A stretch of 45,517 nucleotides of DNA from an uncultured Ruminococcus sp. (GTDB lineage Bacteria; Bacillota; Clostridia; Oscillospirales; Acutalibacteraceae), in the NCBI GenBank assembly GCA_964575985.1, contig CAZNTP010000001.1:1-45517 (forward strand), read 5' to 3'. Under the pieces are notes generated by a model. It saw nothing but the letters and a program-made list of their open reading frames with translations. It was not told where the DNA came from and ran no database searches. Positions 20,201 through 41,522 of the stretch are shown in pieces. Every line of letters begins with the position of its first letter. Position 1 is the first letter of the stretch. Both the position numbers and the translations under genes were made by a program.

Positions 20201-20311
20201 AACTCTCCTATCAAAAATCAGATTCTTTATCTTAAAATCAAAAAAATCAAAACTCTGCAATGCCACCAAATCAAACAATTATTATCGGCACTTTTATGTT
20301 TTATTTATTAT

Positions 20312-21349: not shown

Positions 21350-21366
21350 CCCCTAGTGAGATAGAA

Positions 21367-22734: not shown

Positions 22735-22781
22735 TCTTTACACCCACTTTTAAAACTAATTCCTATAGCAAATTATTTCTT

Positions 22782-23954
22782 CTAATACGGCATTACGGCA
22801 TCTTCGCCGGGACCTAGGTTATATTTGCGGCATACACTGCGGTTTACCGAAAATACATCAATACAGGTTTCCCTTTCGGTACCCTCGGTACGTTCCTTCA
22901 TTTGCACCCACGGAAGTTCCTTATTGGCTGCGGGACCGCCCCAGCCGCCCCAGGCATTTTCACAGCCCGTTGCCACCTGCCATAAATCAATATCCTCACT
23001 GTAATGAACAAGCTCGGCATGCTGATGCCCAAAATTGTATAAAACAATTTTTCCGTTTTTAATACCGCTAAAATCGGCATTTACAGCGATTTCCTTACCG
23101 TTCATATCGGTATATATAAAATCATATTTTCCGCGGGACTGGAACGCTTTAAATACTTTTCTTAAATTTTCACCGTTTTTGCAGTTATCGCTTGTATCAT
23201 TTTCAATTCCCATATGGGATAAAATTATGTAATCCCAACCGTCATCAGCCCCCAAAGCCACATTACAAAGCCAATCAAGCTGTTCAAAGGTATACCAGAA
23301 TCTTGGAAGTCTGTTTGTAAGCTCGGTAACAGTTCCGTTCTCATCAAAAGGCTTTCTCATATCCATTGTATCCAGTACAATAATACGGGTCTTTTTATTT
23401 TCTAAATCAAAATAAAAATATTTCGAATAAGGGTAATTCTTGTCGTGAACTCTTTTTTCACTAAAGGGATAAAGGTCCATAACCTTTTTAGACCAATCCA
23501 TATCGCTTAAAAGCCATTCACATCTAAGCTCGGAATAGTTTGGATTAAGTGTCTGAAAGCCGTTATCATCATGATTGCCAAATGCCAAAATTACAGGCTT
23601 TTGACTATTTTGAAGAGGCTTAAATGCGCGGTTAAGAGTATCCAAAACCGCCTGTTTGCCTCTTACGTTATAAGCATTAAGCGCATCGCCCGCAAAGGCT
23701 ATAAAATCAATATTTTCATTATTATTGGCAAAGCTTACCGCCTCTTCAAGATGGGACTGAAGCATAGAAATTCGTTTTTCAACCTTTTCCTCGGCTTCGA
23801 ATACGGTAAGAGAACCGTCCTCAGCTTTGCGCAAATATTCGTCTATATGGCAATCTGCAAATACAAGATAATTAACAGAATTCTTGCCGTTTTCATTAAT
23901 TTCTTTACCGATTAAATCGAATTTTTCTTTTATCTTATATGCCATTTTATTCAC
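22782..23954 (-). CDS. Calcineurin-like metallophosphoesterase
   Basis: 390-aa ORF with the ordered motifs FADCHID, FAGDALN, FGNHDD, ILSHMG and FGHQHAE. Confidence 0.8.
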   Translation of the reverse strand: MNKMAYKIKEKFDLIGKEINENGKNSVNYLVFADCHIDEYLRKAEDGSLTVFEAEEKVEKRISMLQSHLEEAVSFANNNENIDFIAFAGDALNAYNVRGKQAVLDTLNRAFKPLQNSQKPVILAFGNHDDNGFQTLNPNYSELRCEWLLSDMDWSKKVMDLYPFSEKRVHDKNYPYSKYFYFDLENKKTRIIVLDTMDMRKPFDENGTVTELTNRLPRFWYTFEQLDWLCNVALGADDGWDYIILSHMGIENDTSDNCKNGENLRKVFKAFQSRGKYDFIYTDMNGKEIAVNADFSGIKNGKIVLYNFGHQHAELVHYSEDIDLWQVATGCENAWGGWGGPAANKELPWVQMKERTEGTERETCIDVFSVNRSVCRKYNLGPGEDAVMPY

Positions 23955-23960
23955 TCCCGA

Positions 23961-25172
23961 TTATTCACTTATAAACTTAGTCCAACCCTTGATTTTAAAC
24001 ACACAAAGAGCCGTAGCAAGCAATGCTATTATGCACCAGCTTATAAGCACCGCATTCCAACCCATACCGTCTGCTAATGCAGCAAAACCGTAGGACGATA
24101 CCGACGCACCTACATAGGTAAAGGCATTAAGTATTCCCGAAAAAGTAGAAACCATACCGTATTTTGAAAAATTCTTAGGGATAAGACCAATTAGCATATG
24201 GTTAACACCGTGCATACAGCCCGAAATCATAGCCGCCGAAACTATTGTAACAATAGCAGGAACCTTAAGTCCCAGTCCCATAGGCACAGTAGCTATAAAA
24301 GCTATACCGAACATAATGGATGCCGTTTTTAATTCATTTTTAATTCTATGATAAATTGTGTTTGCAGTGATTACACTTACCATACTCAAAACGGGCAATA
24401 CCGCTGTGCTTAAAACAGACGAGGACTCGCTGAGCCCGAACTTTTCATTCACAAGTGACGGAAGCCAGGTTTGGATACCGTCCCTTAAAATGCCCTGCAG
24501 TGCGATAATTATAAATATAGGAATAAGTCCCGCCAAGGAAATAAGACCCCAAGCAGAAATAGTTTTCTGACTTTGAGTTTTAGCCGTTGCCTCTGCTTTA
24601 CCCATTGGTATATTTCTTGTGGCATAGCCCCAGACAAGCATCATAATTATACCAAAAACCGCCATACATCTGAAAACATTTCGCCAAACCGTGACTTCCA
24701 ATATAAAAGGAACAAAAAGATATACAAATATTGTTCCTACAGATGCGGAAAGGCTTACAGCGGTTATTGCATCGGAATATTTTTCTGTTCCAACCTGTTC
24801 TGAAACAAAACGTGCGAGTGGCGGCCAAAGCATTGCCTGACACACACCGTTAATACACCAAAGAACAGTAATCAGCTTCATACTTGAACAGAATGAAACT
24901 AAAATATTAACGAGAATTGTTCCAAGCATTGCAGTGCTTATCATTTTAACGGGGGATATTTTATCCCCTATAAAGCCACAGATAACCTGTCCCACACCGT
25001 ATGTAATAAAGCTGCCCGTAACTGCTGCAGATGCCATTGTATTGGTTATTTTAAGGTCGGATACTATTGCTACCAAGGAAGCCGAATAATCAAGCCGCAT
25101 AGCATAGCTGAAAAAATAAACCAAAAAGCCAAGCGCCACTACTGTTTTATATGAAAGTGTTTTATTTGCCAT
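23961..25172 (-). CDS. MFS transporter
   Basis: 403-aa ORF with about 12 hydrophobic segments arranged 6+6 around a central charged loop (GKAEATAKTQSQK). Substrate is not assignable by eye. Confidence 0.8.
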   Translation of the reverse strand: MANKTLSYKTVVALGFLVYFFSYAMRLDYSASLVAIVSDLKITNTMASAAVTGSFITYGVGQVICGFIGDKISPVKMISTAMLGTILVNILVSFCSSMKLITVLWCINGVCQAMLWPPLARFVSEQVGTEKYSDAITAVSLSASVGTIFVYLFVPFILEVTVWRNVFRCMAVFGIIMMLVWGYATRNIPMGKAEATAKTQSQKTISAWGLISLAGLIPIFIIIALQGILRDGIQTWLPSLVNEKFGLSESSSVLSTAVLPVLSMVSVITANTIYHRIKNELKTASIMFGIAFIATVPMGLGLKVPAIVTIVSAAMISGCMHGVNHMLIGLIPKNFSKYGMVSTFSGILNAFTYVGASVSSYGFAALADGMGWNAVLISWCIIALLATALCVFKIKGWTKFISE

Positions 25173-25976: not shown

Positions 25977-27038
25977 CTACTCTTTAAGTATACAACCTAT
26001 ATTTCCCTCAATTATGCAGTTGGTATTATTTTCTTCTATAAGATTGTCAATAAGCGCACCGTTGTGCATTGCATTTTCCTTAACTATTGTATTCTCGCAA
26101 TTTTTAATAATCAGGCCGTAATCGGGGCTTACGGGAAGTGTCCCGCCATCGCCTGCGCCCACCTTCATAGTGTTACCCACAAGAACACAGCCTGTGCAAC
26201 CGTCCATAATTACGTGCGAGCTCTTTAAAGGGTCGGTATGGGGTTTATCCACATAACAACCGCCACGTCTGAAAATATTACCCGTAATAGTGGCAAGGTT
26301 AGGACCAACGCCATCCTTACCTAACTCTAAAGCCGGACCGAATGTGCGGTCAAAGAAATTACCTGTAATATTGAAACTGTCTCCCCTCGGGAATATAAAT
26401 CCGCCCTTTTTATTCCATTCAACACGGTTACCCGTGGCTGTAATAGCGGCAACATATCCACTTACGGTAATACCACCACTGCCATTATTAGCAAACCAGT
26501 TATCTGTAAGAAAAGCATCCCATCCACTGAAATTAAGTCCCGCGCCGCCATTGGTAATAATAAGGCATCGCCTTACAGAGAAACACCAGATATGGTCAAA
26601 ATGCAGACCGTCTCCCGAGAAAAGCGATATTCTGCAATCGTCTATATTAGGTGTATCCTCTTGACCGCCGCCGTTTGCCACGGGCCACTGGAGTCTTATT
26701 CCGTGAATATTCTTTCCAAGCTTTTTGCCATTAAAAGACATACCGCTTATCTTACAACCAAATGCTCCGCTTATATCAAGCAGACACTCAGCATTTTCAT
26801 TTGTCAGAATAAAAGCAGAAGCACCGTCATTACGGTAGGTCCAGGAGGAACAACCCTCCAAGGAAACACCCTCACCGCGAAGCTTAAGGTCTCCTTTAAC
26901 ATTATACCTGCCGGGCGGAACTACTATTTTTCCCATACAGTCACGTGCGGCATCCATAGCCTTTTGTATGGCTTCGGTACAATCGGCAACACCGTCACCT
27001 ATTGCGCCGAATTCGGTAATGTCAAATACATTTTTCAT
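25977..27038 (-). CDS. Right-handed parallel beta-helix protein (pectate-lyase-3 / GH28-GH55-like fold), no signal peptide
   Basis: The ORF track extends to 27224, but that stretch overlaps the upstream gene. The ATG at 27036-27038 (MKNVFDITEFGAIGDGVADCTEAIQKAMDAA, a typical N-terminus for this family) has GGTGGGGA upstream and leaves a 25-nt gap. Repetitive G-x-x-I/V-x-N beta-helix rungs follow. Confidence 0.7.
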   Translation of the reverse strand: MKNVFDITEFGAIGDGVADCTEAIQKAMDAARDCMGKIVVPPGRYNVKGDLKLRGEGVSLEGCSSWTYRNDGASAFILTNENAECLLDISGAFGCKISGMSFNGKKLGKNIHGIRLQWPVANGGGQEDTPNIDDCRISLFSGDGLHFDHIWCFSVRRCLIITNGGAGLNFSGWDAFLTDNWFANNGSGGITVSGYVAAITATGNRVEWNKKGGFIFPRGDSFNITGNFFDRTFGPALELGKDGVGPNLATITGNIFRRGGCYVDKPHTDPLKSSHVIMDGCTGCVLVGNTMKVGAGDGGTLPVSPDYGLIIKNCENTIVKENAMHNGALIDNLIEENNTNCIIEGNIGCILKE

Positions 27039-27063
27039 TGTTATCCCCACCGTTCCGATTAAC

Positions 27064-27969
27064 TTACTCTTCAAAACAATTATACTGTGTAAGTATAAAT
27101 TTACCAATATCATAAAGTATAGCTTCAAATCTTTTTCTGAATTCCACAGGCAGCTGCAAGCAACGTGTATCACATTTAAATTTACGACGCCTGAATACTC
27201 CGTAAGGCACGTTATCGGACTCAAAGGTAAAATAACCGTTATAGCCTATATCTATTAATCCGTGCATTACCGAATCTATATTGGTAATACCCATAAACGG
27301 CATTATATGATGGTCATCATTACCCATATTATCCTGAATATGAAGTGCCAAAACATCCTTGCCTAAAATTTTTAAGGCCTCGTGTTGAGGTAATTCCTGT
27401 AAATTTCCGTGACCTACATCCCAACAACCTTTAAGAAGCGGGTGATTAATATAATCTATCAATGATTTTTGGTCTTCAGCAGAGTCTACCCAATAACAAC
27501 CCGGAACACACATTTTATTGAAATTTTCAGTAAGAATGGTTATTCCTGATTTTTCAGCAACTTTAAGTAAATCCTCATAAAAAATCTTGTTTTTATAAAA
27601 GGTTTCTTCCTTACTCAAACCGGTTTGGTAACCGGAGTGAACCACGATATTAGGTATACCCAAATAGGCCGCCGCTTCTATGCTTCGCTTAGTATCGAGA
27701 ATAAATTGCTCATACTCACCATCCATAACCAATGGTCTGCCCATTGGTGAATGAGCCTGAACAAAGCTAACCCCTAGCTTTTGGGCAAAATCCTTTAGTT
27801 CATTGCCATACGCTTTCCAATCGTCGCTATAAAAGCCTGTACGGGTTCTGCAATCTAACCCAAAAGAATAATCTATGTATTTAAAACCCGCTTCTCTTAT
27901 GGCGGCAATACTTTCTTTTGCATTAAAACCGTATGCCGCGAAATCACCTGTGGTTGTTGCCAATTTCAT
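27064..27969 (-). CDS. Sugar phosphate isomerase/epimerase (xylose-isomerase-like TIM barrel)
   Basis: 301-aa ORF with the family pattern: AGFKYIDYSF, VQAHSP, IVVHSG, ILTENF, WDVGHGN. Confidence 0.7.
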   Translation of the reverse strand: MKLATTTGDFAAYGFNAKESIAAIREAGFKYIDYSFGLDCRTRTGFYSDDWKAYGNELKDFAQKLGVSFVQAHSPMGRPLVMDGEYEQFILDTKRSIEAAAYLGIPNIVVHSGYQTGLSKEETFYKNKIFYEDLLKVAEKSGITILTENFNKMCVPGCYWVDSAEDQKSLIDYINHPLLKGCWDVGHGNLQELPQHEALKILGKDVLALHIQDNMGNDDHHIMPFMGITNIDSVMHGLIDIGYNGYFTFESDNVPYGVFRRRKFKCDTRCLQLPVEFRKRFEAILYDIGKFILTQYNCFEE

Positions 27970-28000: not shown

Positions 28001-28987
28001 TTATCCTGTAATACCAACGCGGTCGATACTTTCAATAAACCAGCGCTGTAAAATCATATAAACTATAAGCATAGGTGTTACAAAAAGCACACAGCCAGCC
28101 ATCTGGAATGCCATTGTTTCGGGAGTTTCGGGGTTCATATAATAGCCCTTGGTCGAAAGCGCTGTGGGCAACAAATCAAGCTTCATAGCAAGCGGATAAT
28201 CATCGTTAAGATACATTGAGCAAAGCTGATAATCATTCCAATGCCATATAAGTGAGAACACAACTACTGTTATAATTACAACACCCGAAGACGGCAATGC
28301 TATACGAAGGAAGGTTTTAACAGGGCCTGCGCCGTCAATCCAAGCCGCCTCTTCAAGCTCTTTGGGGAAGCCTGAAAAGAACTGTATATATATGAATATT
28401 ATTACACCTGACCTTAATCCCATTGAGAATATAGAGGGCAAATAAAATGCCGCCGCGCTACCAAGAATATTAGGTCTTAAATCAATGCCTGTCAGTTTAT
28501 CGAACAACCCTAAGATACCTAAAACATCCATTTTAGAGTAATTTGCCATTCGGGGAATAAGCACCATCATATCTGGAACCAGAATTGTAAGGAATAATAT
28601 ACCGAGCATTATACCCTTACCCTTAAACTTAAAGCGCGCAAAGCCGTAGGCGGTAAAGGCGCAAGCCGCAACCTCAATAAGAGCGCTTATAATTTCATAA
28701 ATAAAGGTTGATTTAAGCGCTTTTCCGTAGTCGAGAAGCTCAATTGCTATGTCATAATTGAACTTGGGACTTATAGCCTCGGGAATCCAGACTCTAGTTG
28801 AGTTAAAGAAACCGTTACGGCTTACAAGAGAGGTCACCACCATATAAAGCAGGGGATAAATAATAACAAAGCCTATAGATATAAGAAGTATCATTCTGAA
28901 AGCAAACATTGCCGTGTTTGGCAAATTGCGCTTTAGGGTCTCTTTATTAAGGTTTAAGGAGATTTTTTTGTTGTTAAATAAGCTCAT
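28001..28987 (-). CDS. Carbohydrate ABC transporter permease (pair 2, MalG-like)
   Basis: 328-aa ORF with 6 TM segments and the EAA loop EEAAWIDGAGPVKTFLRIALP. Confidence 0.85.
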   Translation of the reverse strand: MSLFNNKKISLNLNKETLKRNLPNTAMFAFRMILLISIGFVIIYPLLYMVVTSLVSRNGFFNSTRVWIPEAISPKFNYDIAIELLDYGKALKSTFIYEIISALIEVAACAFTAYGFARFKFKGKGIMLGILFLTILVPDMMVLIPRMANYSKMDVLGILGLFDKLTGIDLRPNILGSAAAFYLPSIFSMGLRSGVIIFIYIQFFSGFPKELEEAAWIDGAGPVKTFLRIALPSSGVVIITVVVFSLIWHWNDYQLCSMYLNDDYPLAMKLDLLPTALSTKGYYMNPETPETMAFQMAGCVLFVTPMLIVYMILQRWFIESIDRVGITG

Positions 28988-28999
28988 ATTATCCCCTCC

Positions 29000-29896
29000 T
29001 TAATTCCAACGGTTTTGAAGGAATTTTTTGTAAACAAATACAATCAATCCCATTATTGTGCCAACTACTAAGAAATAGAACCACATCATAGCAGAGGTTT
29101 CGTCATAAACAGCGGCACGCATTAAACTGTAAACCTTTACAACCAAAACATTATTATTGCTTACAAACAGTTCTACCATTGTATAAACCATAACAAGCAA
29201 TGTAACATTTGAAAGCATTGGGAAGGTTATAAACCAAAATTCCTCCCACTTAGTAGCGCCCTCTACCTTACTTGCCTCATAAAGCGTTGAAGGTATAGAC
29301 TGAAGACCCGCTAAGAAAAGTACGGTCTGAATACCGCTGTTCCATATAAGGTCAAATATATTGCTTATTATCTTTTGAACATATTCAGCCACTTGAGCCG
29401 GTAGGTCAAGTATAGATATAATATCCTGAACACTGAACATTCCGCCCGATACCGATTCTGAAACGGATGAGCTTGTCATATCGTCGCCCGCCATACCGGA
29501 AATCAGCTCTATTACTACACCCGAAGCTATAATTACGGGCATAAAATAGAGGGCTCTAAAAAACAGTCTGCCTCTGAATTTCTGGTTAAGCAAAAGTGCC
29601 AGTACCATACTGAGCAATACAATAATCGGCAAGGAATAAACAAAATTTGTAACCGATTTTGTAAGCCAGTTAATATAATCGGTATGCTCGGCAACTATGT
29701 ACTTATAGTTTTTAATACCTACCCAAAGAGTTTGAACACCGTCTTCTGTGATAGACATTTGAGAAAAAGAATAAATTATTGACTGAATAACCGGTATTGC
29801 AAAGAAAAGCACTACACCCACTACCCAGGATGAAATAAAGAACCATCCGTAGCGGGCCTTAATCTCTTCAATACCTCTGTATTTTTTCTTTTTCAT
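29000..29896 (-). CDS. Carbohydrate ABC transporter permease (pair 2, MalF-like) with an unusual S-rich periplasmic insert
   Basis: 298-aa ORF with the EAA loop [21 protein letters not shown]. Its ATG overlaps the stop of the upstream gene (TAATG at 29894-29898). Confidence 0.85.
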
Positions 29897-32142
29897 TACT
29901 TCGCCCCCTCTATAAGAAAGCTTTTTGCAGGAATTTTGCCTGCAGCGTCTGATATTTCATTATCAGAATAATTCACATAAACAGTAACTCCGTTAGAGAA
30001 TTCTGTTTTACGAATACCCGATTCTAAAATAGTGTGATTTACAATTTCACTGTCTGCTATTTTTTCATAGTAGTCGGAAAGTGACTTGTAATTTTCAATT
30101 ACTGTATCCTTTATATCGCTATATAGACTATTGTAAAAAATAGGGGAAACACTGTCAAGCAGTACGGTATCATAATCTGCAATCAGTGTATAGCTTAAAC
30201 CGCAACCGCTCTCAACCGCACGCAAAAGCTGTAAATCGGGTTCGGCTACCAGATTTACGCTCTCAGCCGAAAGCGAGGTTCTGCCTCTGAATACCATCTG
30301 GTAAAGCGGAATATCTTCATCAAAAATAAATGCTTTTGATGAAACGGTAGGCGCACCTATAACCGCATCTGATTTTGCCGCCGCAAAGGCATTGGCATCT
30401 TCAGTAATAATTTTTTTGTTTTCGGCTTTAATACTGTCTATTATACCGATAACCTGATTTGCAAAGCCTTCCTTTGCATAATATTCTACCGATTCCTTAT
30501 TACTGTAATCGGAATATACCATATTTGAAAGTGAGGTAAGACCCACGCCCGAAAGCTCTAGTTTTTCGGCCGCATTGAGAACGTCCTCTCCGACATCTGT
30601 AAAGCGGTCGCGGGCTAAAAGCGATAATGCGTTTTCGGTTTCTCTGCCCAAAACTGCGATATCAAACCTATAATCCTTTGCAGGCTTACGGTTAGCTCTT
30701 ATAGCCGCATCAAAATATGATTTGTAGCCGTTAGCAGACTGGTTAAAGCTAACAGTATTAAAATCAAAATAAAAATCTGTGCCGTTATTCTTGCAAAGCT
30801 CCATTACCTGCCCGAGTTCTTTTGCTTTGCCAAGCTTAGAATCTATTTTGAAATTACCCGCAAGCTTATTAGAGTCAATTCCGTTTTCAGTAAAGCCTTT
30901 AAGGGTTACGTTTGAAACATCAAGACCTTTTTCCTTAAGCTCATTAAGAATATCGCCTACCTGCGATATTGTAGTTGTTGGGAAAAGTGTCTTATAAGGA
31001 ATACCCAAAAATGACTTTACGGTCATAGTGCCGCCAATAAATGTGAGGTCAAGCTTTGAAGAAGCGGCCGCCTTGGCTTCGCCCATAGTTTTATCAAGAT
31101 AATTACGGTAGGTCTCTGCCATAGCACTATAGTTAGCCTTTTCATTCTCTAAGGGATAGAAACCGATTGTAAGCGGAGTTTCTATCATATTATCGGCATA
31201 AACCGAGCCCTCATAATATCTGTTGTTATAAAGTTCTTTTATGTTTGCGGTATATCCGCGAAGCTGATATGTGGTATAAACCGAGCTATAGCCAATAGAG
31301 GTTGAGCCCACTGTCATTTTAAGAAGAGAAGACTCTGCCCCCTGCTCTATTATGCCGGCTACAGCGGTTGTTGCCGTTTTTACACCGAAAAGCGGTAATC
31401 TGATTGCTTTTTCGGTGGTAATTTTGTCCCACACCTCTTTGGAGTAGTCGATGCCGTAAACCTCTGCCTCATAAGCTTCACCGGGTTGTGAAATTTCTTT
31501 AGCATATACAAGTGCTCCCGAGCCTGAGGGATAAACCAAATAGCCGTCTGTTGCGCTATTTTCTACCGAACAGAAGAAGGGCGCCACCGCCACAGAAATG
31601 AGCATATTCTCATTTTCCTCTATTTCCTTAGGGTTAACGGTAATTGCCACACTGTCCTCTCTGAGAGAGTATTCAACCGGCACCATAATCTGTGCATCAT
31701 CAAAATAATACTTAATTTTGATGCCGTTTTCTATCTCCTCAGCAACGGTGCGGCCTCCCTTTACAGCCGCGTTATAAGAAATAAGCTGTGAGGTTATATT
31801 TTTTTCAACATCAAGGTAGTCAATAATTAATACAGACTCAACCTGTGGATGCCTTTTAATAGGCATACCGAACTCATCAAACTGCTGTTCACCCGAAGCT
31901 ATAGGATTAGTACCGTAAACTGCACCTGTTTTCAAATTTGTAAGGGTTATGCCCATTGTAGTTTCATTAAGCTCCAGCTTAAAATTTTCATTTTCTGCTA
32001 TAACGGTGTCAGAAACCGATGCCGATTCCGTCTTATCATCGAAGGAATTCTTTTTTAGCACGGTCTTGCCCGAGCAACCGCAAAGCATTGTTAAAACCAA
32101 TGTAAATATACAAACTGACGAAATAAATCTTTGCCAATTCAA
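29896..32142 (-). CDS. Large lipoprotein of unknown function (748 aa)
   Basis: TTG start (rc of 32140-32142) 8 nt after AGGAGG. Signal peptide plus lipobox (LTMLCGCSG). I could find no catalytic or binding motif. It is translationally coupled to the downstream permease. Confidence 0.75.
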
Positions 32143-32158
32143 AAGTAATTCCTCCTAT

Positions 32159-34270
32159 CTATGATATTAATTCAAGAAAAACGGTTACGGCGAAGCCGCC
32201 TATTTGCTGAATAAGCATTCCTACCAGAATCATAAGGAACACTAAAACCGCCAACCAAGCAATACTTAAAACACTTGTGCCGATAAGTCTCGACATACTG
32301 AAATCGTGTATTTTAATAAGACCGATTATAAGAAGTATTGCGGTAAATCCAATTGCCACCGCATCAAAACCGTCAAGGAACATTGCCTCATTAGGTAATA
32401 ATACATTAGTGAAAATAAGTCTTGCAAATCTTTCTATTATTATAGGTAACAAGCTGTAGCAGGTTACAATGCAAATCTCTCTGAGGGTTCCCTTACCCTG
32501 CATAAGAGTACATATCATCCAGTTGCTGAGTATCCACAAAACAACAAGACCTGCACTACGAACAAGCACCCAAATTGAATTGAAGTTTGCGGGGTCGTAC
32601 TGTGTGAATAAAAATCCGCCGCAAAGCACCTGAATTACGGCTGTTACATAAAACAAGGTAATCAGCACACCGCAAATTATAAGTGAGCCCTGCTTCTTTT
32701 CCTTAATCTCCTCAAAGGTTAAAACAGGATGAATAAGGGTTCTGAACATCAGTCTTACCTGTTTTGATTTTATAAGCTTTATTTGCTTTTTCTTTATAAA
32801 TACCGACAAACCGATAACTGCCGCTATTATAACTACAACCGACAGGAATATCAGCCAAAAATATTCTTTAAGCAAATTCTGGCGATAAAATTCAAAGGCT
32901 ATCTGATAGGTTTCTCTGTCATAACCTATTTTTGCATATTCCATCGCGGCTTTGTAATCACATTCTGTAAGATACGCTCTTGCAATACCGCTGTATGCAG
33001 GCTGGAAATTACGGTCAAGGGCTATAACCTCGTTCCAACCCTCTCGCGCTTCGAGATATTTACCCTCAAGGGTAATATCTATAAGCCCCATAACCTTTTT
33101 GCCGAAATCGGTGATTTTAAAAACTGTAACTGTATTTTTTAGCTTATCTGTAACAAGTACATCTGTGCCGTTAAGGGCTATTGCATTTGCGGCAGAAAAT
33201 GTACCGTCCTGCTGACCGCTACCGAGACCGCCGCCAAATGCAGTAAGCATTCTGCAGGACCTGTCATAAAGGAAAACTCTGCCAAACTGAGATTCAATAC
33301 AGTAAACATAACCCGCATCGTTAACAACAAGACCAACGATATCCTGCTCTATTTGCTTACCGTTATTAAATGTGGTATTAAAGGCATCGTCAACAAAGTT
33401 TGATTCTTCCGAGTTTAAAATATTACTGCCATTACCGGGATTTAGCTTTTTTATCTGTCCCACTCTATCGTAGGTATCTGTTTTACCGGTAGCTGTATAA
33501 ATAAAGTCATTTTTATCAATAACTATGTCTACAAACGAATAAGGCAATGTTCTTGCGCTTGCGCTCTTTTTGGCATTGTTAGGGAACATACGCTCAATAA
33601 TATTTTTAATAGCCGATGCTATTCCCGTTGTAACATCATTAGCACCGTAAAAGCCTGTAAAGCTTTTATCGGGCGCATAAAGAAGCGCACCGTAATACGA
33701 ACCGTCACTCAAAACATAAAGATAGCCGTGTGAATCCATAACAGCCTTTAGGGGCTTAAAGACAAACTCCTCAGGAATAAGCGAAGATTCGGGCAAAAGA
33801 TATACATCTGTAACAGTTCCGTCAGGCTTTATTCTTAAAACCTGAGCCTGCTCGGTATTGCAGACAAAAATTGTTCCGTCTGTATAAACAAACAGACTTT
33901 GTGCGCCTGCAAAGTTATAAACTACACCGTCACTGCCCACAAGCTCGGTAATTTCAGCCAATAATTTATAGTTGTTATCAAGAACTATTATTCTGGATTC
34001 GTTATCAAGAATATAAATTCTGTCATTCCCTGTAACAACATCATTAATCTGTGTGAGGGGCTTAATCCCTAAAGATAACGCATCGATAACAAAATCGGTT
34101 GTGTACATAGGTCGGCTGTAAACAGCCTTTCTTTCCTCACCTATATCCTCCCAATAAGTATAGCTCTCAAAAGGAATCTGATTTGAAGCGGCATTAACAC
34201 CTAAAATGCAGGAGAATAAACATATGAAGGCTAACAGTACCGCAATCAAACGAATTGCTCTTTTAAACAT
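32159..34270 (-). CDS. Membrane protein: signal peptide, NHL-like beta-propeller, TPR-like segment, TM helix, C-terminal Yip1-like multi-pass domain
   Basis: 703-aa ORF with RBS AAGGGGAG. It has repeated blade-like segments (RIYILDNESRIIVLD, GTIFVCNTEQAQVLRI, GYLYVLSDGSYYG, DFIYTATG, GYVYCIESQFGRVFLYD, DVLVTDKLKNTVTVF) and a TPR-like stretch (YSGIARAYLTECDYKAAMEYAKIG). One TM helix is at about aa 468-490, with about 5 more in the last 190 aa. Confidence 0.7.
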   Translation of the reverse strand: MFKRAIRLIAVLLAFICLFSCILGVNAASNQIPFESYTYWEDIGEERKAVYSRPMYTTDFVIDALSLGIKPLTQINDVVTGNDRIYILDNESRIIVLDNNYKLLAEITELVGSDGVVYNFAGAQSLFVYTDGTIFVCNTEQAQVLRIKPDGTVTDVYLLPESSLIPEEFVFKPLKAVMDSHGYLYVLSDGSYYGALLYAPDKSFTGFYGANDVTTGIASAIKNIIERMFPNNAKKSASARTLPYSFVDIVIDKNDFIYTATGKTDTYDRVGQIKKLNPGNGSNILNSEESNFVDDAFNTTFNNGKQIEQDIVGLVVNDAGYVYCIESQFGRVFLYDRSCRMLTAFGGGLGSGQQDGTFSAANAIALNGTDVLVTDKLKNTVTVFKITDFGKKVMGLIDITLEGKYLEAREGWNEVIALDRNFQPAYSGIARAYLTECDYKAAMEYAKIGYDRETYQIAFEFYRQNLLKEYFWLIFLSVVVIIAAVIGLSVFIKKKQIKLIKSKQVRLMFRTLIHPVLTFEEIKEKKQGSLIICGVLITLFYVTAVIQVLCGGFLFTQYDPANFNSIWVLVRSAGLVVLWILSNWMICTLMQGKGTLREICIVTCYSLLPIIIERFARLIFTNVLLPNEAMFLDGFDAVAIGFTAILLIIGLIKIHDFSMSRLIGTSVLSIAWLAVLVFLMILVGMLIQQIGGFAVTVFLELIS

Positions 34271-34283
34271 ACATTTCTCCCCT

Positions 34284-35189
34284 TTACATATCTTTAATGC
34301 CTGCGCTGCTCATAGCCTCTACAACATTGCTCTGAGATATTAAATAAACTATAACAGGCGGGATCATCATAATAGTAGTTATAGCCATAGCGCTACCTGT
34401 TCTTGCAATACCTCCGGCGGTAATCTGGGTTACAATCTGGGGAAGAGTTTTAAGCTCTTCATTGAAAATTGTACCGTTAGGAATTGCCGCCCAGATATCA
34501 CGGAAAGCAAAAAGGGTAACCGTAAGCCACGCAGGTTTTATAATAGGCATTATAATCTGCCAGAAAATTCTGATGTAACCTGCACCGTCTATTTTTGCGG
34601 CTTCCATCAAAGCATCAGGCACATAGCCCTCAATATACTGCTTTATAAGGAATACACCCAATGTACCTGCCAATTGCGGTAAAATATATACCCAATATGT
34701 ATCCACTAACCGAAGCTTTGAGAATATAAGGTACTGCGGAACCGAAAGCACATAAGAGTTAAACATAAGCGCAAACTGAATTATAAGGAATATAAAGCCC
34801 TTGCACTTATATGTACCCTTAGCAAGCGAAAATGCCGCCATTGCCGAAAAAACAATATTAAGCACCGATGTAACAGCTGTTATAAACAAGCTGTTGAAAA
34901 CATAACGCGAAAGCGGCACCGAAAGGCTTGAAAGCAAGGTCGGTAATACTACATAGTTTTCGGTGGTGGGTCTGCGCACTGTGAAAAGTGTCGGAGGGAA
35001 AATAAGTAATTCATCAATAGGCTTAAACGATGTAACCACCGCATAAATAAGGGGTAGCATACTGAAAAGACCTGTTGCGATTATAAAAGCAAAGCAAACA
35101 AAATTACCAAATTTTGAACGGGTAAAGCGGTTTGCATTAGGCTTTTTAGGATTAGCTAATCTGTATTTATAATAAAGCTTCTTAAACAT
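34284..35189 (-). CDS. Carbohydrate ABC transporter permease (pair 1, LplC/MalG-like)
   Basis: 301-aa ORF with 6 TM segments and the EAA loop MEAAKIDGAGYIRIFWQIIMP. Confidence 0.85.
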   Translation of the reverse strand: MFKKLYYKYRLANPKKPNANRFTRSKFGNFVCFAFIIATGLFSMLPLIYAVVTSFKPIDELLIFPPTLFTVRRPTTENYVVLPTLLSSLSVPLSRYVFNSLFITAVTSVLNIVFSAMAAFSLAKGTYKCKGFIFLIIQFALMFNSYVLSVPQYLIFSKLRLVDTYWVYILPQLAGTLGVFLIKQYIEGYVPDALMEAAKIDGAGYIRIFWQIIMPIIKPAWLTVTLFAFRDIWAAIPNGTIFNEELKTLPQIVTQITAGGIARTGSAMAITTIMMIPPVIVYLISQSNVVEAMSSAGIKDM

Positions 35190-35198
35190 CTATACCAC

Positions 35199-36110
35199 CT
35201 ACTTACTTACCATATTCAAAACTTTGCCGATAATATATCTTGTTGTTGCCATTAAAGCAAACAAAACAACCGCTATTGAAGAAGCATAGCCCAGCTCATA
35301 TCTGACCGTTGCCATATCCGACATATGCGTAACAATGGTATCAACCGTGTGCTGAACACTGGGGTAGCCCGCAAGCTCTACAGCAACAGCGCTTATAGAG
35401 AAGCTGCTTTGAATCTGCATAACCGCACTGAAAAGCAGCATGTGTGACATTGAAGGCAATGTAATATATCTTAGCTCTTGCCAACGGCTACGAATACCGT
35501 CAATAGCGCCGGCTTCATATAAATCGCGGTTTACATTCTGAAGACCCGAAATATTCGAAAGGAAGGAAACACCGAGACTTTGCCATAGTTGTACAATTAT
35601 AACTATAGTAAAGAGATAATCGGGGCTTTTAAGCCAGGTAATAGGCTCGGTAATAATACCCACCGATAAAAGCAGGCTGTTAATATAACCGTAGCTGTCA
35701 CCCGAAAAGGCAATTTTCCAAATGAAATATGCGTTACCTACAAGGGACGGCGCATAAAACATAAACGAGAAAAGGGTTCTAAGTCCTGTGGAAAACTCAT
35801 TTACAAGCCAAGCAAAAAGGAAGGCCAGCAAAAAGCCCGCAGGACCTACAACAACCGCAAGCGCTACGGTATTCTTTAATACCGTCATAAACACATCGTC
35901 TTCAACAAACATACGCATATAGTTTCCAATGTTTATGAATTTAGGCATAGAAAGCATATCATATGAGGTGAAGCTTAAAACAATAGAAGAAAGTATCGGT
36001 AAAACCGTAAATACAAGGAAAAAGGTGAAAAACGGAGCTAACAGCAATAGCATAGGTAGCTGTTCATATTTTCCGCTTGTACTTTTTTTAATAACTTTTG
36101 TATTTTTCAT
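35199..36110 (-). CDS. Carbohydrate ABC transporter permease (pair 1, LplB/MalF-like)
   Basis: 303-aa ORF with the EAA loop YEAGAIDGIRSRWQELRYITLP. Confidence 0.85.
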   Translation of the reverse strand: MKNTKVIKKSTSGKYEQLPMLLLLAPFFTFFLVFTVLPILSSIVLSFTSYDMLSMPKFINIGNYMRMFVEDDVFMTVLKNTVALAVVVGPAGFLLAFLFAWLVNEFSTGLRTLFSFMFYAPSLVGNAYFIWKIAFSGDSYGYINSLLLSVGIITEPITWLKSPDYLFTIVIIVQLWQSLGVSFLSNISGLQNVNRDLYEAGAIDGIRSRWQELRYITLPSMSHMLLFSAVMQIQSSFSISAVAVELAGYPSVQHTVDTIVTHMSDMATVRYELGYASSIAVVLFALMATTRYIIGKVLNMVSK

Positions 36111-36124
36111 GTAACCTTCCTCCT

Positions 36125-38995
36125 TTACTTATACTCTTCAATCTTACGATTGATTTCAGCATCGGCCACCTGACTCCACTTTGTTATGGCGTCCTTTGCG
36201 TTAACATTATCGTTAAGAACAGACCAATACGCCTGATCTATCGCGCGGCTCAAATAATAACTGCCTGGAAGCTCGGGCACTTCCTTTACCTTACTCCACT
36301 GGTTAAGGATAATTTCCAAATCATTTTTATCCCAGCTTAAGTTTTTAAGTGCCTCTACATTGGCTGTGGTCTGACGTCCAAGCATACCCAAAAGCGACTC
36401 TACATTGTTTGAATATCTGGTCTGGGTATCGGCAGATGTCCACCATTTAAGGAATCGCCATGCCTCTTTTTGATTGGGGGATTTTTTAAGTATTGCGCAT
36501 CCTGTACCTGCACCTGCAACAGAATCGTTACCGCCCACAGTTCCTGGTACGCAAGCCACAGACCAACGTCCCTTGATTTCGGGCGCCGCGCTGTAAAGTG
36601 TCAAATATGTAGAATAGGGCGCAATACCAAGCGGCATAACACCTACACGAAGTCTGTTATAGAAATCTGCCTCCTTTTGATACTCATAATCAGTATAAAG
36701 GGTGGTCCAGAAATCAAATACAGAAATTTCGTCAATACCTGTGAGTTGGGTTGCGTTTAACTCCTCATTATAAATTGAAAGTCCGTTCTGTCCCATAAGT
36801 GTGGGGAAAAGATTAAGGCTTCCTATACCTGCATTTACAGTGGTTGCCGCAGTAATCATTGTATAAGGAATATAAACATTCATATTATTTCGCTGAATAA
36901 TAGCAGATGTATAAAGGAATTCATCCCACGTAGTAGGCACCGTAAGCCCTAAGTTTTCAAGAATATCGCTACGGTAGAACATCATATAGAAGCTCTGGGT
37001 ATCGGGTAAAGCATAAAGCTCGCCGTCATAACAGTACGGAACCTCGGCATCAGGCTGAAAACGCTCTAATATTTCATCAATATCATCAAACTCGGATAAA
37101 TCTGTAAGGGCACCGCGTATTCCCAGGTTTACAGGCTCAGTTCTTGTTAAATGAAGAGCCATATCGGGAAAATTACCCGAAAGCAAACCGTTTATAAGAG
37201 AAGCATTTGTTATCTGCACCTTAACGGGTATTCCTGTTTCGGCAGTAAAAGAATCTCTTATCAAAGTGTCAAGGGCTGTTGCCTGGTCTCTACCCCAGTT
37301 TACCCAAAGCTTAAGACTGGTTTTATTCTCCTCGGCAGTTTTGGATTCAATAATATAATCGTCTACAAAAGAGATAAAAAGTCTTTCTGCTCCATATAGC
37401 AATTTCTTTAAGAAAGAAGCGTCCTTGTTTTCAAACTCTGCACCCACGGGGGCTAACTGAATAGTATCGATATAAAGCGGCATCTTCTTCATATCATAAA
37501 GCCAAGAGCTAAGAGAAGAATAATTTGTATAGTAGTCAGTTACATACTGATGTGCCATATAAGGACTGTCGCACATTATTTTAAGCACGCGGCTCATATT
37601 GTTTAATGCCGCAATATACTGACTGCTTCTTTTACCCGTGAACTTTTCGAGATCCTTTGCCAGAGTGATTAACTGCTCTCTACATTCCTCAAAGGTATCG
37701 TTAAGATTGGGGATTTGCCTGAATAATTCATAGTCAAGATTTGCATCGGGTGTAGCGCCCGTAATCTTAACAATTTCAATATACTTATTTCCAAGCTTAT
37801 CAACTATATCGGATAAACGGTAGAAATATTCTGACATATCACCCATTGTAACCTCAAGGGTAAGTGTGTGCTCGCCCTTATCAAGCCAAATGTAATAAGG
37901 CTCTTCACCGTTTTTCCATTCGAAGAAGCTCCACTTAGCACAGTAAGGGAATCTTATTCCCTTAGCTTCTGTGAAAGGAGTTTTTCCGTCTATTTTAAGC
38001 CAACGCCAGCTCTCTGCATTGATAACATCGCTTTGACGGTATCTGAAACCGAGCTTGTAATAACCTGCTTCCTTAGCAGTGAAATCCCATTGCAAGAACT
38101 GACCTGCCTCCTGCCAAGAGGTGCCGCCTATGTAATTCAGTTTTGTGAGCATTACATCATTGGGTGTCACACCGGCATCCGAATTATCAGATTTAGGGAT
38201 AAGACTTGATGCAGATTTAAGGCTTGCATTCTCTCCCTGAATAACTATGGTTTTTACATCTTTTTCACTGATTTTGTAATCCTTTGAAACCTCTTCATAG
38301 CTCTCTGTTTTTTCGGGTGCAGAAAGCTCTAAGCAAGCTACCGCTACCGCTTGCTCGGGATTATTTATAGAAACAGTATGGGTGCCGGCGCTGAAATAAA
38401 AGGCATACGGCTCTACCGTTACACCCGTTGTGCTTCGGGCCAAAGTTTTTTGGTATTCTTTAACCTCGGCTTGTTCAGGGGTGAGCTCATTACCTAAATT
38501 ATCAACCCTTATTTTATCAGAAGCATTTTCCCACAAACGCGGAAAGCTTAAAAGCTCGGCCTCGCCAAAAGGAGTTACGCCATCTATCTTAAAAGCGAAT
38601 ACATAATCCACACCGCTCTCAACAGCGCTGTATTCAAGCTTAATATTATAATAGGAATCTGTAGGCACGGTAACTGTCCACTCGGCAGCACCCGTTCCCT
38701 TTTGCCATAAAACCGCGGTTTTACCGTTTGCTTCTTTAATTACAGCATCACCCGAAACCACAGCATCAGCGGCATTTAAGCTCATACTGTTTTCCGCAGC
38801 AGAAAACTCATCAAATTTTGATATGTATTCATTATAGTCCGTAGCTGTAACGGCAGTTTGTGATTGTACTATAGGAGTCGATTCTTCTACAGTATCTGCA
38901 CTGACTGTAATACCGTTTAAACATAAATTAGAACTCGCGGCCAATATCACAGTCAAACCAAGTGATACAAATCTTTTTGAAAACCCTCTGTTCAT
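36125..38995 (-). CDS. Secreted fusion protein (~956 aa): two beta-sandwich (CBM-like) domains, helical linker, C-terminal family-1 solute-binding domain
   Basis: The ORF is open to a GTG at 39064, which has no SD. The ATG at 38993-38995 (or the TTG 3 nt upstream) follows AAAGGAG and starts signal peptide MNRGFSKRFVSLGLTVILAASSNLCLNGITVSA. Two similar segments are present (WTVTVPTDSYYNIKLEYS...FKIDGVTPF and WDFTAKEAGYYKLGFRYRQ...LKIDGKTPF). The C-terminal ~400 aa is SBP-like (LKLWVNWGRDQ..., YALPDTQSF, KEAWRFLKWW). Confidence 0.8.
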   Translation of the reverse strand: MNRGFSKRFVSLGLTVILAASSNLCLNGITVSADTVEESTPIVQSQTAVTATDYNEYISKFDEFSAAENSMSLNAADAVVSGDAVIKEANGKTAVLWQKGTGAAEWTVTVPTDSYYNIKLEYSAVESGVDYVFAFKIDGVTPFGEAELLSFPRLWENASDKIRVDNLGNELTPEQAEVKEYQKTLARSTTGVTVEPYAFYFSAGTHTVSINNPEQAVAVACLELSAPEKTESYEEVSKDYKISEKDVKTIVIQGENASLKSASSLIPKSDNSDAGVTPNDVMLTKLNYIGGTSWQEAGQFLQWDFTAKEAGYYKLGFRYRQSDVINAESWRWLKIDGKTPFTEAKGIRFPYCAKWSFFEWKNGEEPYYIWLDKGEHTLTLEVTMGDMSEYFYRLSDIVDKLGNKYIEIVKITGATPDANLDYELFRQIPNLNDTFEECREQLITLAKDLEKFTGKRSSQYIAALNNMSRVLKIMCDSPYMAHQYVTDYYTNYSSLSSWLYDMKKMPLYIDTIQLAPVGAEFENKDASFLKKLLYGAERLFISFVDDYIIESKTAEENKTSLKLWVNWGRDQATALDTLIRDSFTAETGIPVKVQITNASLINGLLSGNFPDMALHLTRTEPVNLGIRGALTDLSEFDDIDEILERFQPDAEVPYCYDGELYALPDTQSFYMMFYRSDILENLGLTVPTTWDEFLYTSAIIQRNNMNVYIPYTMITAATTVNAGIGSLNLFPTLMGQNGLSIYNEELNATQLTGIDEISVFDFWTTLYTDYEYQKEADFYNRLRVGVMPLGIAPYSTYLTLYSAAPEIKGRWSVACVPGTVGGNDSVAGAGTGCAILKKSPNQKEAWRFLKWWTSADTQTRYSNNVESLLGMLGRQTTANVEALKNLSWDKNDLEIILNQWSKVKEVPELPGSYYLSRAIDQAYWSVLNDNVNAKDAITKWSQVADAEINRKIEEYK

Positions 38996-39084
38996 CAAAA
39001 TATCTACTCCTTTTATTTGCCGATAAGGCATCTTTATATAATTTATTTTAAAAACAATTTGCACAATATTCCATTCTTAAAAGT

Positions 39085-39145
39085 ATTGTATCATATACAA
39101 TCCTTACTAACAATGTAAAAAATTAACTATAAAATGTGAAAAATT
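39085..39145 (-). promoter_or_regulatory. Promoter, tandem direct-repeat site and overlapping palindromic operator upstream of the transporter unit
   Basis: Direct repeats ATGTAAAAAATT (39113-39124) and ATGTGAAAAATT (39134-39145) lie 21 bp apart. The minus strand carries -35 TTGTTA (rc of 39108-39113), a 17-nt spacer ending in TGA, and -10 TACAAT (rc of 39085-39090). The perfect palindrome ATTGTAT-cat-ATACAAT (39085-39101) covers the -10 and spacer. Confidence 0.5.
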
Positions 39146-39335
39146 ATTTTTCGTTGTCATTGTTTCACAATAAAACCAATTAAGTGGGCTTAAATATGAC
39201 ATTTTAGGTAATAAATATTGGCAAAAACTGTAGAATTTGGTTTTTCCGCTTGTTTTTTCTATTTTCATCTTGTATAATATGTAATTGATTGTATAATTTA
39301 AGAAAAAAACTCACTGAAATTTCAAGGAGAGCAAA

Positions 39336-41522
39336 ATGATAAAATATATTGCCGAAAACAAAACATTTTACTTAAATACAAAAAATTCCAGTTATGTGAT
39401 AAAGCTGCTCAAAAGTGATATGCTTTGTCACTGGTATTACGGCGCACGTATTGAAGCCGAAAATTTGGATATGCTTAATTTGCTCTGCAAAAGAGAATAT
39501 ACTCAGGGAGAATTTCTTGATGAAATAAATAAACGCAACTACGTTACAAAGGATGCAGCCCCTATAGAATTTCCTATTTCAGGCAACGGCGATTTCAGAA
39601 TTCCTGCATTGCTGACAGAAAATTCCTTTGGACAGCACGGCGCAAATCTTATATATAAATCCCACTGTATAACCAAAGGCAAAAAAGCCCTTGAAAATCT
39701 TCCCTCTTTTGATACCAATACCGAAAATACCGAAACTCTGGAAATTGTTTTAGAGGATACCGTTTCGGGTTATGAGGTTTCAATTTTCTATTCTGTATTC
39801 GAGGAAGAGGATGCTATTGCAAGGCATACAGAAATAAGAAATGTGACCGATAAGAAGTTGAAAATCACATCTGCGCAAAGTCTTTCTATAGATTTTCCCG
39901 CAAAGCAATTTGATTTTATAACCCTTGACGGCGCCTGGGCAAGAGAACGCCACGTAACCCGTCGCGCACTTTCTGCAGGCACAACCTCTATCGAAAGCCA
40001 CAGAGGCGCCACTGGCCATCAGCACAACCCTTTTAGTGCCTTAGTTGAAAAAACCACGACCGAAAACAGCGGTATTGCATATGGCTTCGCGCTTGTATAT
40101 AGCGGTAATTTCAAGTCTGTTGCGGAGGTTGACCAGTTTGGCTCTACACGTTTTCAAATTGGTATTAACCCACACAATTTCTGTTGGAACCTGCTCCCCG
40201 GCGAAACCTTTATAACACCCGAAGCTGTTTGTGTTTTCAGCAACGAGGGTCTTAACGGAATGTCTCACAGCTTCCATAATATGTGCAAAAATCACCTCGG
40301 CAAATCTACATTAAACATAAAAAGACCCATTGTTATAAACAGCTGGGAAGCTATGTATTTTGATATGAATGAAGCCGCCATAGAAAAGTTTATCAATGAC
40401 TGTAAGGGTCTTGGTATAGACACCTTTGTGCTTGATGACGGTTGGTTTGGAAAACGGGACGATGATTATAGCTCGCTTGGAGATTGGTTTGTACATAAAA
40501 CAAAATTCCCTGACGGCTTAGACAAAGTAATTGATACCTGTCAGCAAAACGGTATGAATTTCGGAATTTGGTTTGAGCCCGAAATGATTTCGCCCAAGAG
40601 TGAGCTTTTTGAAAAGCATCCCGATTGGTGTGCTCATGTTGAAAACAAGACTCCAACCGAAAGCCGACATCAATTGGTATTGGATATGTCACGTCCGGAA
40701 GTTGTGGATTACACATACAATCAGGTTGCAGATATACTTAAAAAATATGACATTTCCTATGTTAAGTGGGATATGAACCGCAACATTATTGACGTAGGCT
40801 CTGCCGCGCTTTCTGCGGATAATCAAAAGGAATTCTCACACCGCTACATTTTAGGTGTTTATGATTTAATGCGCAGACTTACCGATGATTTTCCCAATGT
40901 TTTGTTTGAAGGCTGCGCCGGCGGCGGCGGCAGATTTGATTTTGGTATTCTCTACTATATGCCGCAAATCTGGACAAGTGATGATTCCGATGCTATCGAA
41001 CGTCTTAAAATTCAGTACGGCACAAGCTTTGTTTACCCGCCCTCTGCAATGACAGCGCATGTATCGGCCTGCCCCAACCACCAAACAAAAAGAATCACCC
41101 CCTTTAAAACAAGAGGTGATGTGGCTCAGATTTGCAATTTCGGTTATGAGCTTAATGTTTCTAAACTAAGTGATGAAGAAAAGGAGCTTATCAAAGAGCA
41201 GATAGCCCTTCACAGACGTTTAGAGGATATAATTGAAAACGGTACCTTATACCGAATTGACAGTCCGTTTGAAAACGAGTTTTGCAGTTGGCAGCTAGTA
41301 TCCAAGGACAAAAAGCGCGCATTTGCTGTATGCGCCACCCAAAAAATTACCGCCAACAACAACGGTCACTATATTAAACTTAAAGGTCTTGACCCAAAAA
41401 CCGAATACACCGTTAACGGCAGTTTTAATCTTCACGGTAACACGCTTATGAACTTCGGCCTGCCGATAGTCGGCGATTTGACAGATTTTAAAACCTATAC
41501 ATTCGAAATTATTGCCAAGTAA
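39336..41522 (+). CDS. GH36 alpha-galactosidase
   Basis: 728-aa ORF with RBS AAGGAGAG. GH36 signatures: LDDGWFGKRDDDYSSLGDW, YVKWDMNR, FEGCAGGGGRFD, WTSDDSDA. Confidence 0.9.
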   Translation: MIKYIAENKTFYLNTKNSSYVIKLLKSDMLCHWYYGARIEAENLDMLNLLCKREYTQGEFLDEINKRNYVTKDAAPIEFPISGNGDFRIPALLTENSFGQHGANLIYKSHCITKGKKALENLPSFDTNTENTETLEIVLEDTVSGYEVSIFYSVFEEEDAIARHTEIRNVTDKKLKITSAQSLSIDFPAKQFDFITLDGAWARERHVTRRALSAGTTSIESHRGATGHQHNPFSALVEKTTTENSGIAYGFALVYSGNFKSVAEVDQFGSTRFQIGINPHNFCWNLLPGETFITPEAVCVFSNEGLNGMSHSFHNMCKNHLGKSTLNIKRPIVINSWEAMYFDMNEAAIEKFINDCKGLGIDTFVLDDGWFGKRDDDYSSLGDWFVHKTKFPDGLDKVIDTCQQNGMNFGIWFEPEMISPKSELFEKHPDWCAHVENKTPTESRHQLVLDMSRPEVVDYTYNQVADILKKYDISYVKWDMNRNIIDVGSAALSADNQKEFSHRYILGVYDLMRRLTDDFPNVLFEGCAGGGGRFDFGILYYMPQIWTSDDSDAIERLKIQYGTSFVYPPSAMTAHVSACPNHQTKRITPFKTRGDVAQICNFGYELNVSKLSDEEKELIKEQIALHRRLEDIIENGTLYRIDSPFENEFCSWQLVSKDKKRAFAVCATQKITANNNGHYIKLKGLDPKTEYTVNGSFNLHGNTLMNFGLPIVGDLTDFKTYTFEIIAK

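Follow-up and report, generated by a model that had tools for sequence, protein, structure and literature searches.

The 45,517-nucleotide window analysed here (positions 1 to 45,517 of contig CAZNTP010000001.1, GenBank assembly GCA_964575985.1), from an uncultured Ruminococcus sp. of the Acutalibacteraceae, carries at 28001-38995 a seven-gene membrane transport module. In 5' to 3' order on the minus strand, its genes encode a giant solute-binding protein (SBPx), a first pair of ABC permeases (P1a and P1b, transporter 1), a polytopic protein that joins an NHL propeller and tetratricopeptide repeats (TPR) to a Yip1 domain (NHL/TPR-Yip1), a DUF5696 lipoprotein, and a second pair of permeases (P2a and P2b, transporter 2) (Table 1). 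Intergenic gaps in that order are 14, 9, 13, 16, -1 and 12 nt; at the TAATG in 29894-29898, the start of P2a overlaps the stop of DUF5696, and a GAGGGGG site lies upstream. A first-pass annotation, made from the letters of this stretch alone, had described seven tightly packed, co-directional genes with gaps of 9-16 nt and one TAATG overlap, all of which the coordinates bear out. An AAAGGAG ribosome-binding site precedes the ATG of SBPx at 38995, and the AT-rich region between SBPx and a divergently oriented gene upstream of it probably holds the module promoter, as judged from consensus matches. A scan for consensus promoters and terminators found no informative signals inside the module.

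Both permease pairs are of the kind found in CUT1 sugar importers. The BPD_transp_1 domain is present in all four proteins, which pair as one MalF/UgpA-like and one MalG/UgpE-like subunit each according to Pfam and NCBIfam, as the first-pass annotation had claimed, and an EAA coupling loop can be read from each translation, so that the permease signature of CUT1 systems occurs twice, once per pair. P1a and P2a share 25% identity, and P1b and P2b 24%, values that rule out a recent duplication of one transporter and mark the two pairs, as far as sequence comparison can tell, as old paralogues. An export function was also rejected, since BPD_transp_1 permeases that work with solute-binding proteins (SBPs) are importers.

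The seven-gene string is widespread. A scan of one genome per GTDB species yielded 266 relatives, of which the best 80 loci were kept for inspection; these 80 are gut or rumen metagenome-assembled genomes (MAGs) titled Acutalibacteraceae, Oscillospiraceae, Ruminococcaceae, Clostridia or Lachnospiraceae. The open reading frames (ORFs) of 89 fetched loci, a set that includes one contig fetched twice, were searched with the seven window proteins. Gene order and strand were consistent in 89 of 89 loci; all seven genes were found in 73, and the other 16 are cut by contig ends. Among 72,556 plasmids searched with tblastn, the string occurs in two records, Butyrivibrio fibrisolvens pNP243 and a Paenibacillus cellulosilyticus plasmid, with RefSeq gene names in agreement, and the N-terminal extension of SBPx, NHL/TPR-Yip1 and DUF5696 each match exactly these two plasmids and no others. 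Over the tblastn-aligned stretch, DUF5696 is 28% (pNP243) and 23% (P. cellulosilyticus) identical to the window protein; whole-protein alignment gives 25% for Butyrivibrio and 20% for Paenibacillus cellulosilyticus. A search with the Paenibacillus protein uncovered a large clade in Paenibacillus, Cohnella and Neobacillus, and the string is also present in Neobacillus kokaensis, Cohnella luojiensis, a MAG and a Paenibacillus assembly with a protein named for P. mucilaginosus. The remark in the first-pass annotation that YIP1/DUF-lipoprotein/permease strings are annotated in Clostridia and Paenibacillus was therefore correct. DUF5696 homologues with 40-90% identity occur in metagenomes, and the DUF5696 profile matches 5,088 clusters at 50% identity, 3,223 of them at E <= 1e-30. 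Some genomes hold several copies, with three in one MAG (JAZNJD: L019, L022, L024), two in another (JAFOFE: L033, L065) and paralogous copies P0300 and P0306 in Paenibacillus hamazuiensis. In one MAG locus (L088, 9001-12243), DUF5696 reaches 1080 aa and SBPx 1087 aa, both with extra domains.

These comparisons indicate that the seven genes form a genuine unit whose co-conservation is deep and spans two bacterial classes. Each half taken singly resembles a standard CUT1 system, and the gene for a second binding protein (SBP2) has moved about 25 kb in the window, so the cluster does rearrange; the string could on these grounds be viewed as a pair of ordinary sugar ABC transporters and two genes unrelated to them, brought together by chance adjacency or local rearrangement. 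However, the order and strand are the same in every locus and in both classes despite 24-25% identity between the pairs and a DUF5696 identity down to 20-28%, and the three signature families co-occur exclusively in the plasmid collection. Chance adjacency is effectively refuted by these conservation data, and we give it almost no weight.

The first gene had been described as encoding a protein of about 956 aa with beta-sandwich domains and a solute-binding domain, which its ATG and ribosome-binding site, Pfam and an AlphaFold2 (AF2) model all support. The SBP_bac_1/8 domain occupies aa 597-886 of the 979-aa ORF (Pfam, E 1e-19). In the AF2 model, built with 17 homologues and confident in its N-terminal part, two beta-sandwiches (about aa 60-225 and 250-382) are followed by a long helical bundle (about aa 387-503). 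Foldseek relates the sandwiches to the carbohydrate-binding modules (CBMs) of families CBM6/CBM35 in 2cdp, 2w1w, 2vzp and 5fui (E 1e-6 to 1e-4, target TM score up to 0.77); the Pfam model CBM_35 stays below threshold in the window protein (E 0.049) and has a precomputed match on four homologues. The model thus points to two CBM6/35-like domains in SBPx, a likeness at the level of the fold only. The protein has a cleavable signal peptide; across 65 orthologues the N-terminus is of the signal peptidase I type, and a lipobox, absent from the window protein, occurs in just 2 of them. SBPx therefore appears to be a secreted, non-lipidated SBP, which is unusual for a single-membraned organism, as we take the source to be from its taxonomy. 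Lacking a lipid anchor, the protein would have to be retained by some other contact.

NHL/TPR-Yip1 consists of a signal peptide, an extracytoplasmic NHL propeller (about aa 66-390), a TPR pair (about aa 404-455), a transmembrane (TM) helix (aa 474-492) and a Yip1 domain (aa 510-680). The Yip1 model (PF04893) scores 45.0 bits against a gathering cut-off of 28.6, with hydrophobic segments at aa 530-687. In profile searches against PDB sequences, the protein is similar to Pizza and PknD-sensor NHL propellers (E 7e-42 to 2e-22, 3-6 matched stretches), and the TPR at aa 404-455 is recovered as well; the Pfam NHL model is above threshold in the Paenibacillus and Butyrivibrio orthologues. Pfam Yip1 and the profile matches to NHL and TPR structures thereby uphold the propeller/TPR/Yip1 architecture read from the letters in the first-pass annotation. 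NHL/TPR and Yip1 are encoded by two separate genes overlapping by about 20 nt in Butyrivibrio fibrisolvens (L084, 9183-11278) and Cohnella luojiensis (L087, 6916-8986), and by one fused gene in the other loci inspected, including the window. The occurrence of the two parts as split, overlapping genes in two lineages argues for their physical interaction. In Bacillus, the Yip1-family protein YknW modulates assembly of the YknXYZ ABC transporter (PMC4887032). Argued by analogy, it is the only precedent for a possible assembly role of NHL/TPR-Yip1.

These features could also be read as those of a partial sensor, in which SBPx, NHL/TPR-Yip1 or both detect an extracellular glycan and control expression or transporter activity instead of serving uptake. 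The NHL propeller is most similar to structures derived from the PknD sensor, SBPx has no anchor, and regulators are near at hand, with an AraC protein in the window and a histidine kinase and response regulator beside the Butyrivibrio copy. However, no signalling domain is present on the cytoplasmic side of the Yip1 protein. Many loci lack a neighbouring regulator and the regulators that do occur are of several types, in contrast to the invariant set of seven genes, and the SBPx gene always stands immediately before a permease pair, as is the case for transport SBPs. We therefore regard a sensory role as distinctly improbable.

The fifth gene product, recorded in the first-pass annotation as a 748-aa lipoprotein with no recognisable motif, proved to be a full-length DUF5696 protein (PF18952; E 8e-134, 447.8 bits against a cut-off of 25.6, profile positions 5-612 of 612) with a predicted glycosidase fold. 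The window protein and its clade have a lipobox, at Cys23; in the proteins of Butyrivibrio, Paenibacillus and locus L083, the N-terminus is hydrophobic and uncharged and lacks a lipobox cysteine, and we read it as a TM or signal anchor. From these N-termini, DUF5696 is predicted to be membrane-tethered and extracellular throughout. Its AF2 model (pTM 0.77) comprises an N-terminal beta-sandwich, a (beta/alpha)8 barrel and a C-terminal beta domain. When the model was compared with the PDB by Foldseek, glycoside hydrolase (GH) family GH129 ranked first, with ZgGH129 (5opq, E 1.6e-30, TM score 0.61/0.68) and NagBb (5wzn, E 1.5e-23), followed by GH101, GH36 and GH31. At the sequence level, the DUF5696 profile reaches 5opq weakly (E 0.0036, short stretches), phmmer found no match to the protein among PDB sequences, and no GH model of Pfam matched the window protein. 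DUF5696 thus seems to stand outside GH129 by sequence while its modelled fold and domain order are the same.

In an alignment of 85 DUF5696 sequences, six carboxylates are conserved: D232 (100%), D460 (91%), D478 (94%), D545 (98%), D610 (84%; D or E in 91%) and E644 (100%). Of these, D232 maps to the N-terminal domain of the model and D460, D545, D610 and E644 map to its barrel region; several of the conserved carboxylates directly follow predicted barrel strands. On the strength of the model, DUF5696 is a putative membrane-tethered extracellular glycosidase with a GH129/GH101/GH36-like fold. The gap between DUF5696 and P2a is -4 to +2 nt in six of seven loci with called genes (-1 in the window), and the two genes are predicted from this spacing to be translationally coupled.

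The first-pass annotation had counted four permeases and only one recognisable binding domain, a puzzle that is largely dissolved by two observations. A second SBP lipoprotein gene, SBP2, lies on the same strand near one end of the window, and an SBP gene follows P2b within 600 nt in 47 of the 74 related loci with enough flank. Homologues of the window SBP2 were found by phmmer in 55 loci, mostly directly after P2b. SBP2 is thus the probable partner of P2a and P2b, and in the window its gene has been displaced some 25 kb, to the far end of the cluster. Between its lipobox and SBP domain, aa 35-125 form a low-complexity linker of about 90 aa, a near-perfect (TESK)n/(TESE)n repeat.

The close association of DUF5696 with P2a allows a different assignment, already raised in the first-pass annotation, namely that DUF5696 is itself the substrate receptor of pair 2, a glycosidase-derived protein that passes its product straight to P2a and P2b in place of a classical SBP. 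Consistent with this, DUF5696 and P2a are translationally coupled, stop to start, in nearly all loci, DUF5696 is always anchored at the outer face of the membrane, and the remaining 27 of the 74 loci have no SBP gene after P2b, nor has any of four loci from Bacilli. However, most of the loci do have an SBP gene at that position, a homologous SBP is encoded in the window cluster, and two of the four Bacilli loci (L086 and L087) have a conventional SBP gene upstream. Type I ABC importers are known to dock two-lobed SBPs, and the fold of DUF5696 is that of an enzyme, with conserved carboxylates. This glycosidase fold makes an enzyme likelier than a surrogate binding protein for pair 2, and we consider the receptor assignment unlikely.

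An ATPase gene was sought in the window with a MalK-type ATPase as phmmer query and with Walker A and LSGGQ regular expressions over the six-frame translation; both gave zero matches, which confirms the earlier statement that no nucleotide-binding subunit is encoded there. In CUT1 systems, the ATPase is usually encoded in trans and shared. A MalK-type ATPase gene leads the operon, directly before SBPx, in three of the four Bacilli loci (L085, L086 and L089), with ABC_tran, OB_MalK and TOBE_2 in the L086 and L089 proteins and the annotation UgpC in L085; in L075, an ATPase gene lies downstream of the module. The absence from the window thus appears, from these gene contents, to be a feature of the lineage, and the ATPase must be encoded elsewhere in the genome. 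A single ATPase gene alongside two permease pairs suggests that both transporters are driven by the same motor.

The surroundings of the module agree with the glycan context proposed at first reading, with GH16 (two genes), GH30, GH36 and esterase genes and an AraC regulator beside the transporters, as expected of a Gram-positive polysaccharide utilisation locus (gpPUL). The nearest relatives of the GH16 lipoprotein are GH16 laminarinases and entry 6t2n ('Glycoside hydrolase family 16 protein'), the GH30 enzyme is of the SrfJ/glucosylceramidase type, and the esterases and the AraC regulator are on the same strand as the module. A beta-glucan-type substrate is plausible for this cluster. Across the related loci, the neighbouring enzymes differ: GH16 in most Acutalibacteraceae copies, GH36-AraC in a subclade, GH43 in Butyrivibrio, GH26/GH113/GH9 in Cohnella and GH2/GH38 in Neobacillus. 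Flanking enzymes differ even between module copies within single genomes. Varying enzyme neighbours together with several copies per genome suggest that the module is a generic platform with diversifying specificity, in the manner of SBPs and SusC/D pairs.

Several neighbours have features of their own. The 2477-aa giant surface protein is conserved, with homologues that adjoin the seven genes in 36 of the related loci, frequently in the series SBP2, giant protein, GH16. The dockerin of the 2590-aa protein hints at cohesin-dockerin display in an Acutalibacteraceae-like organism. At 20408-25172 on the minus strand, a PHP-domain protein, a calcineurin-like metallophosphoesterase and an MFS transporter are encoded between the GH30 gene and the esterases, which may mean that the substrate is phosphorylated or carries some other decoration. 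With the called TTG start, the beta-helix ORF shares 161 nt with the xylose-isomerase-like gene upstream of it; the true start of the ORF is probably further downstream.

Table 1. Coordinates of the module genes and of the other features of the window
Feature	Coordinates	Strand	Description
SBPx	36125-38995	-	956 aa from ATG at 38995; ORF 36125-39064 is 979 aa from GTG
P1a	35199-36110	-	303 aa; MalF/UgpA-like ABC permease, transporter 1 (Pfam/NCBIfam); EAA loop YEAGAIDG
P1b	34284-35189	-	301 aa; MalG/UgpE-like ABC permease, transporter 1; EAA loop MEAAKIDGAG
NHL/TPR-Yip1 protein	32159-34270	-	703 aa
DUF5696 lipoprotein	29896-32142	-	748 aa
P2a	29000-29896	-	298 aa; MalF-like ABC permease, transporter 2; EAA loop YEASKVEGA
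P2b	28001-28987	-	328 aa; MalG-like ABC permease, transporter 2; EAA loop EEAAWIDGAG
SBPx/GH36 intergenic region	38996-39335		Divergent; AT-rich; TTTACA-18-TATGAT at 39119-39090
GH36 alpha-galactosidase	39336-41522		Divergent, upstream of SBPx
SBP2	1816-3387	-	523 aa; lipobox AVGC; SBP_bac_8 (Pfam, E 1.6e-10)
AraC regulator	813-1649
GH16/CE2/dockerin protein	3422-11194	-	2590 aa, secreted; GH16, CE2/GDSL esterase, GLUG and GH20b-like regions, type I dockerin
GH16 lipoprotein	11230-12816	-	Acidic Ser/Thr/Glu/Asp-rich linker, similar to that of SBP2
Giant surface protein	12845-20278	-	2477 aa; signal peptide, C-terminal TM anchor; sole Pfam match one Listeria-Bacteroides repeat
GDSL esterase, MFS transporter, metallophosphoesterase, GH30, PHP protein	within 3422-27969	-
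Beta-helix (pectate-lyase-like) ORF	25977-27224	-	Called from TTG
Xylose-isomerase-like TIM protein	27064-27969	-

Collectively, these results are probably best explained by a dual ABC importer module of Bacillota, in which we infer that DUF5696 trims substrates at the cell surface and that NHL/TPR-Yip1 serves in assembly or tethering. The inventory of parts, their topology and their co-conservation are observed, and the working scheme built on them is a proposal. Large surface enzymes, GH16 in the window, would cut the polymer, and the fragments would be captured by SBPx and handed to P1a/P1b. Membrane-held DUF5696 could then trim or debranch fragments, and the products would enter via SBP2 and P2a/P2b. 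A single MalK/MsmK-type ATPase, encoded elsewhere in the genome, would drive both transporters. NHL/TPR-Yip1, for which YknW offers the precedent, would hold the assembly together and may also retain the anchorless SBPx. In a more far-reaching form of this model, which we put forward tentatively, the seven proteins, SBP2 and a MalK-type ATPase might make up one membrane supercomplex, a Gram-positive counterpart of the Bacteroidota utilisome, in which NHL/TPR-Yip1 scaffolds both importers, tethers SBPx and positions DUF5696, as a new GH129-like family, so that cleavage is coupled to two-lane import.

Several points weigh against the dual importer model and its extension. An hhalign comparison of the 85-sequence DUF5696 alignment with a GH36 alignment was not significant (probability 0.3), so that no catalytic residues could be transferred, and DUF5696 could be a non-catalytic glycan binder. 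Nor would one obviously expect a glycosidase to persist across modules when the enzymes beside them act on very different glycans. For SBPx, the modelled SBP domain is of low confidence and was not used. No SBP2 gene lies directly downstream of P2b in the GH36-AraC subclade or in the four Bacilli loci, which makes SBP2 a less certain partner of pair 2. The existence of a supercomplex, the retention of SBPx by tethering and the split of tasks between the transporters are pure inference.

The capture and import of glycan fragments by Gram-positive bacteria of gut and soil are far less understood than the Sus-type systems of Bacteroidota. The module spans uncultured Acutalibacteraceae of the human and ruminant gut and culturable Paenibacillus, Cohnella, Neobacillus and Butyrivibrio, so hosts that can be grown, and that may be tractable, are available for its study. 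Should DUF5696 prove to be active as an enzyme, it would found a new glycoside hydrolase family, and if the Yip1 protein scaffolds the importers, bacterial Yip1 proteins would gain a general role as ABC-transporter assembly factors. In addition, the module could act as a genomic marker for glycan-utilisation loci of Bacillota. A literature search, with most subscription journals outside its coverage, returned no paper on DUF5696, PF18952 or the seven-gene string, and within that coverage the earlier remark that no functional description was known stands.

Among known systems, CUT1 importers (MalEFGK2, MsmEFGK, UgpABCE) are the closest to each half of the module, which likewise has a MalF-like and a MalG-like BPD_transp_1 permease with EAA loops and an SBP_bac_1/8 protein, and a MalK/MsmK-type ATPase that is shared or encoded elsewhere, or in cis in the Bacilli copies. 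The module differs in that it locks two divergent permease pairs into an invariant operon with two non-transporter proteins between them, and in its SBPx of about 950 aa with two CBM-like domains and a helical bundle but no lipid anchor. With YknWXYZ it shares a bacterial Yip1-family polytopic protein encoded alongside an ABC transporter (PMC4887032). However, YknYZ is an exporter of the MacB type that has a membrane fusion protein, whereas the transporters here are type I importers, and YknW is described as a Yip1-family protein with no mention of a large ectodomain (PMC4887032), whereas the Yip1 protein of the module bears an NHL and TPR ectodomain.

The DUF5696 model shares the three-domain architecture of GH129 and GH101 enzymes, including the 3,6-anhydro-D-galactosidase ZgGH129 (5OPQ), the alpha-N-acetylgalactosaminidase NagBb (5WZN) and EngBF (Foldseek E 1.6e-30 to 1e-17), but is only 13-14% identical to them, matches no Pfam or CAZy family besides DUF5696, and is membrane-tethered within a transporter operon. 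As in gpPULs and, by analogy, the Sus-like utilisomes of Bacteroidota, glycoside hydrolases, transporter and regulator are clustered, surface capture, cleavage and import are encoded together, and paralogous copies in one genome lie beside different glycoside hydrolases. Unlike the Sus-like systems, the module has no SusC/D homology and is known here from its genes, not as a complex. To our knowledge, no described gpPUL has this fixed seven-gene core. Set against these systems, the module is an undescribed, deeply conserved composite of two ABC importers and two module-specific accessory proteins.

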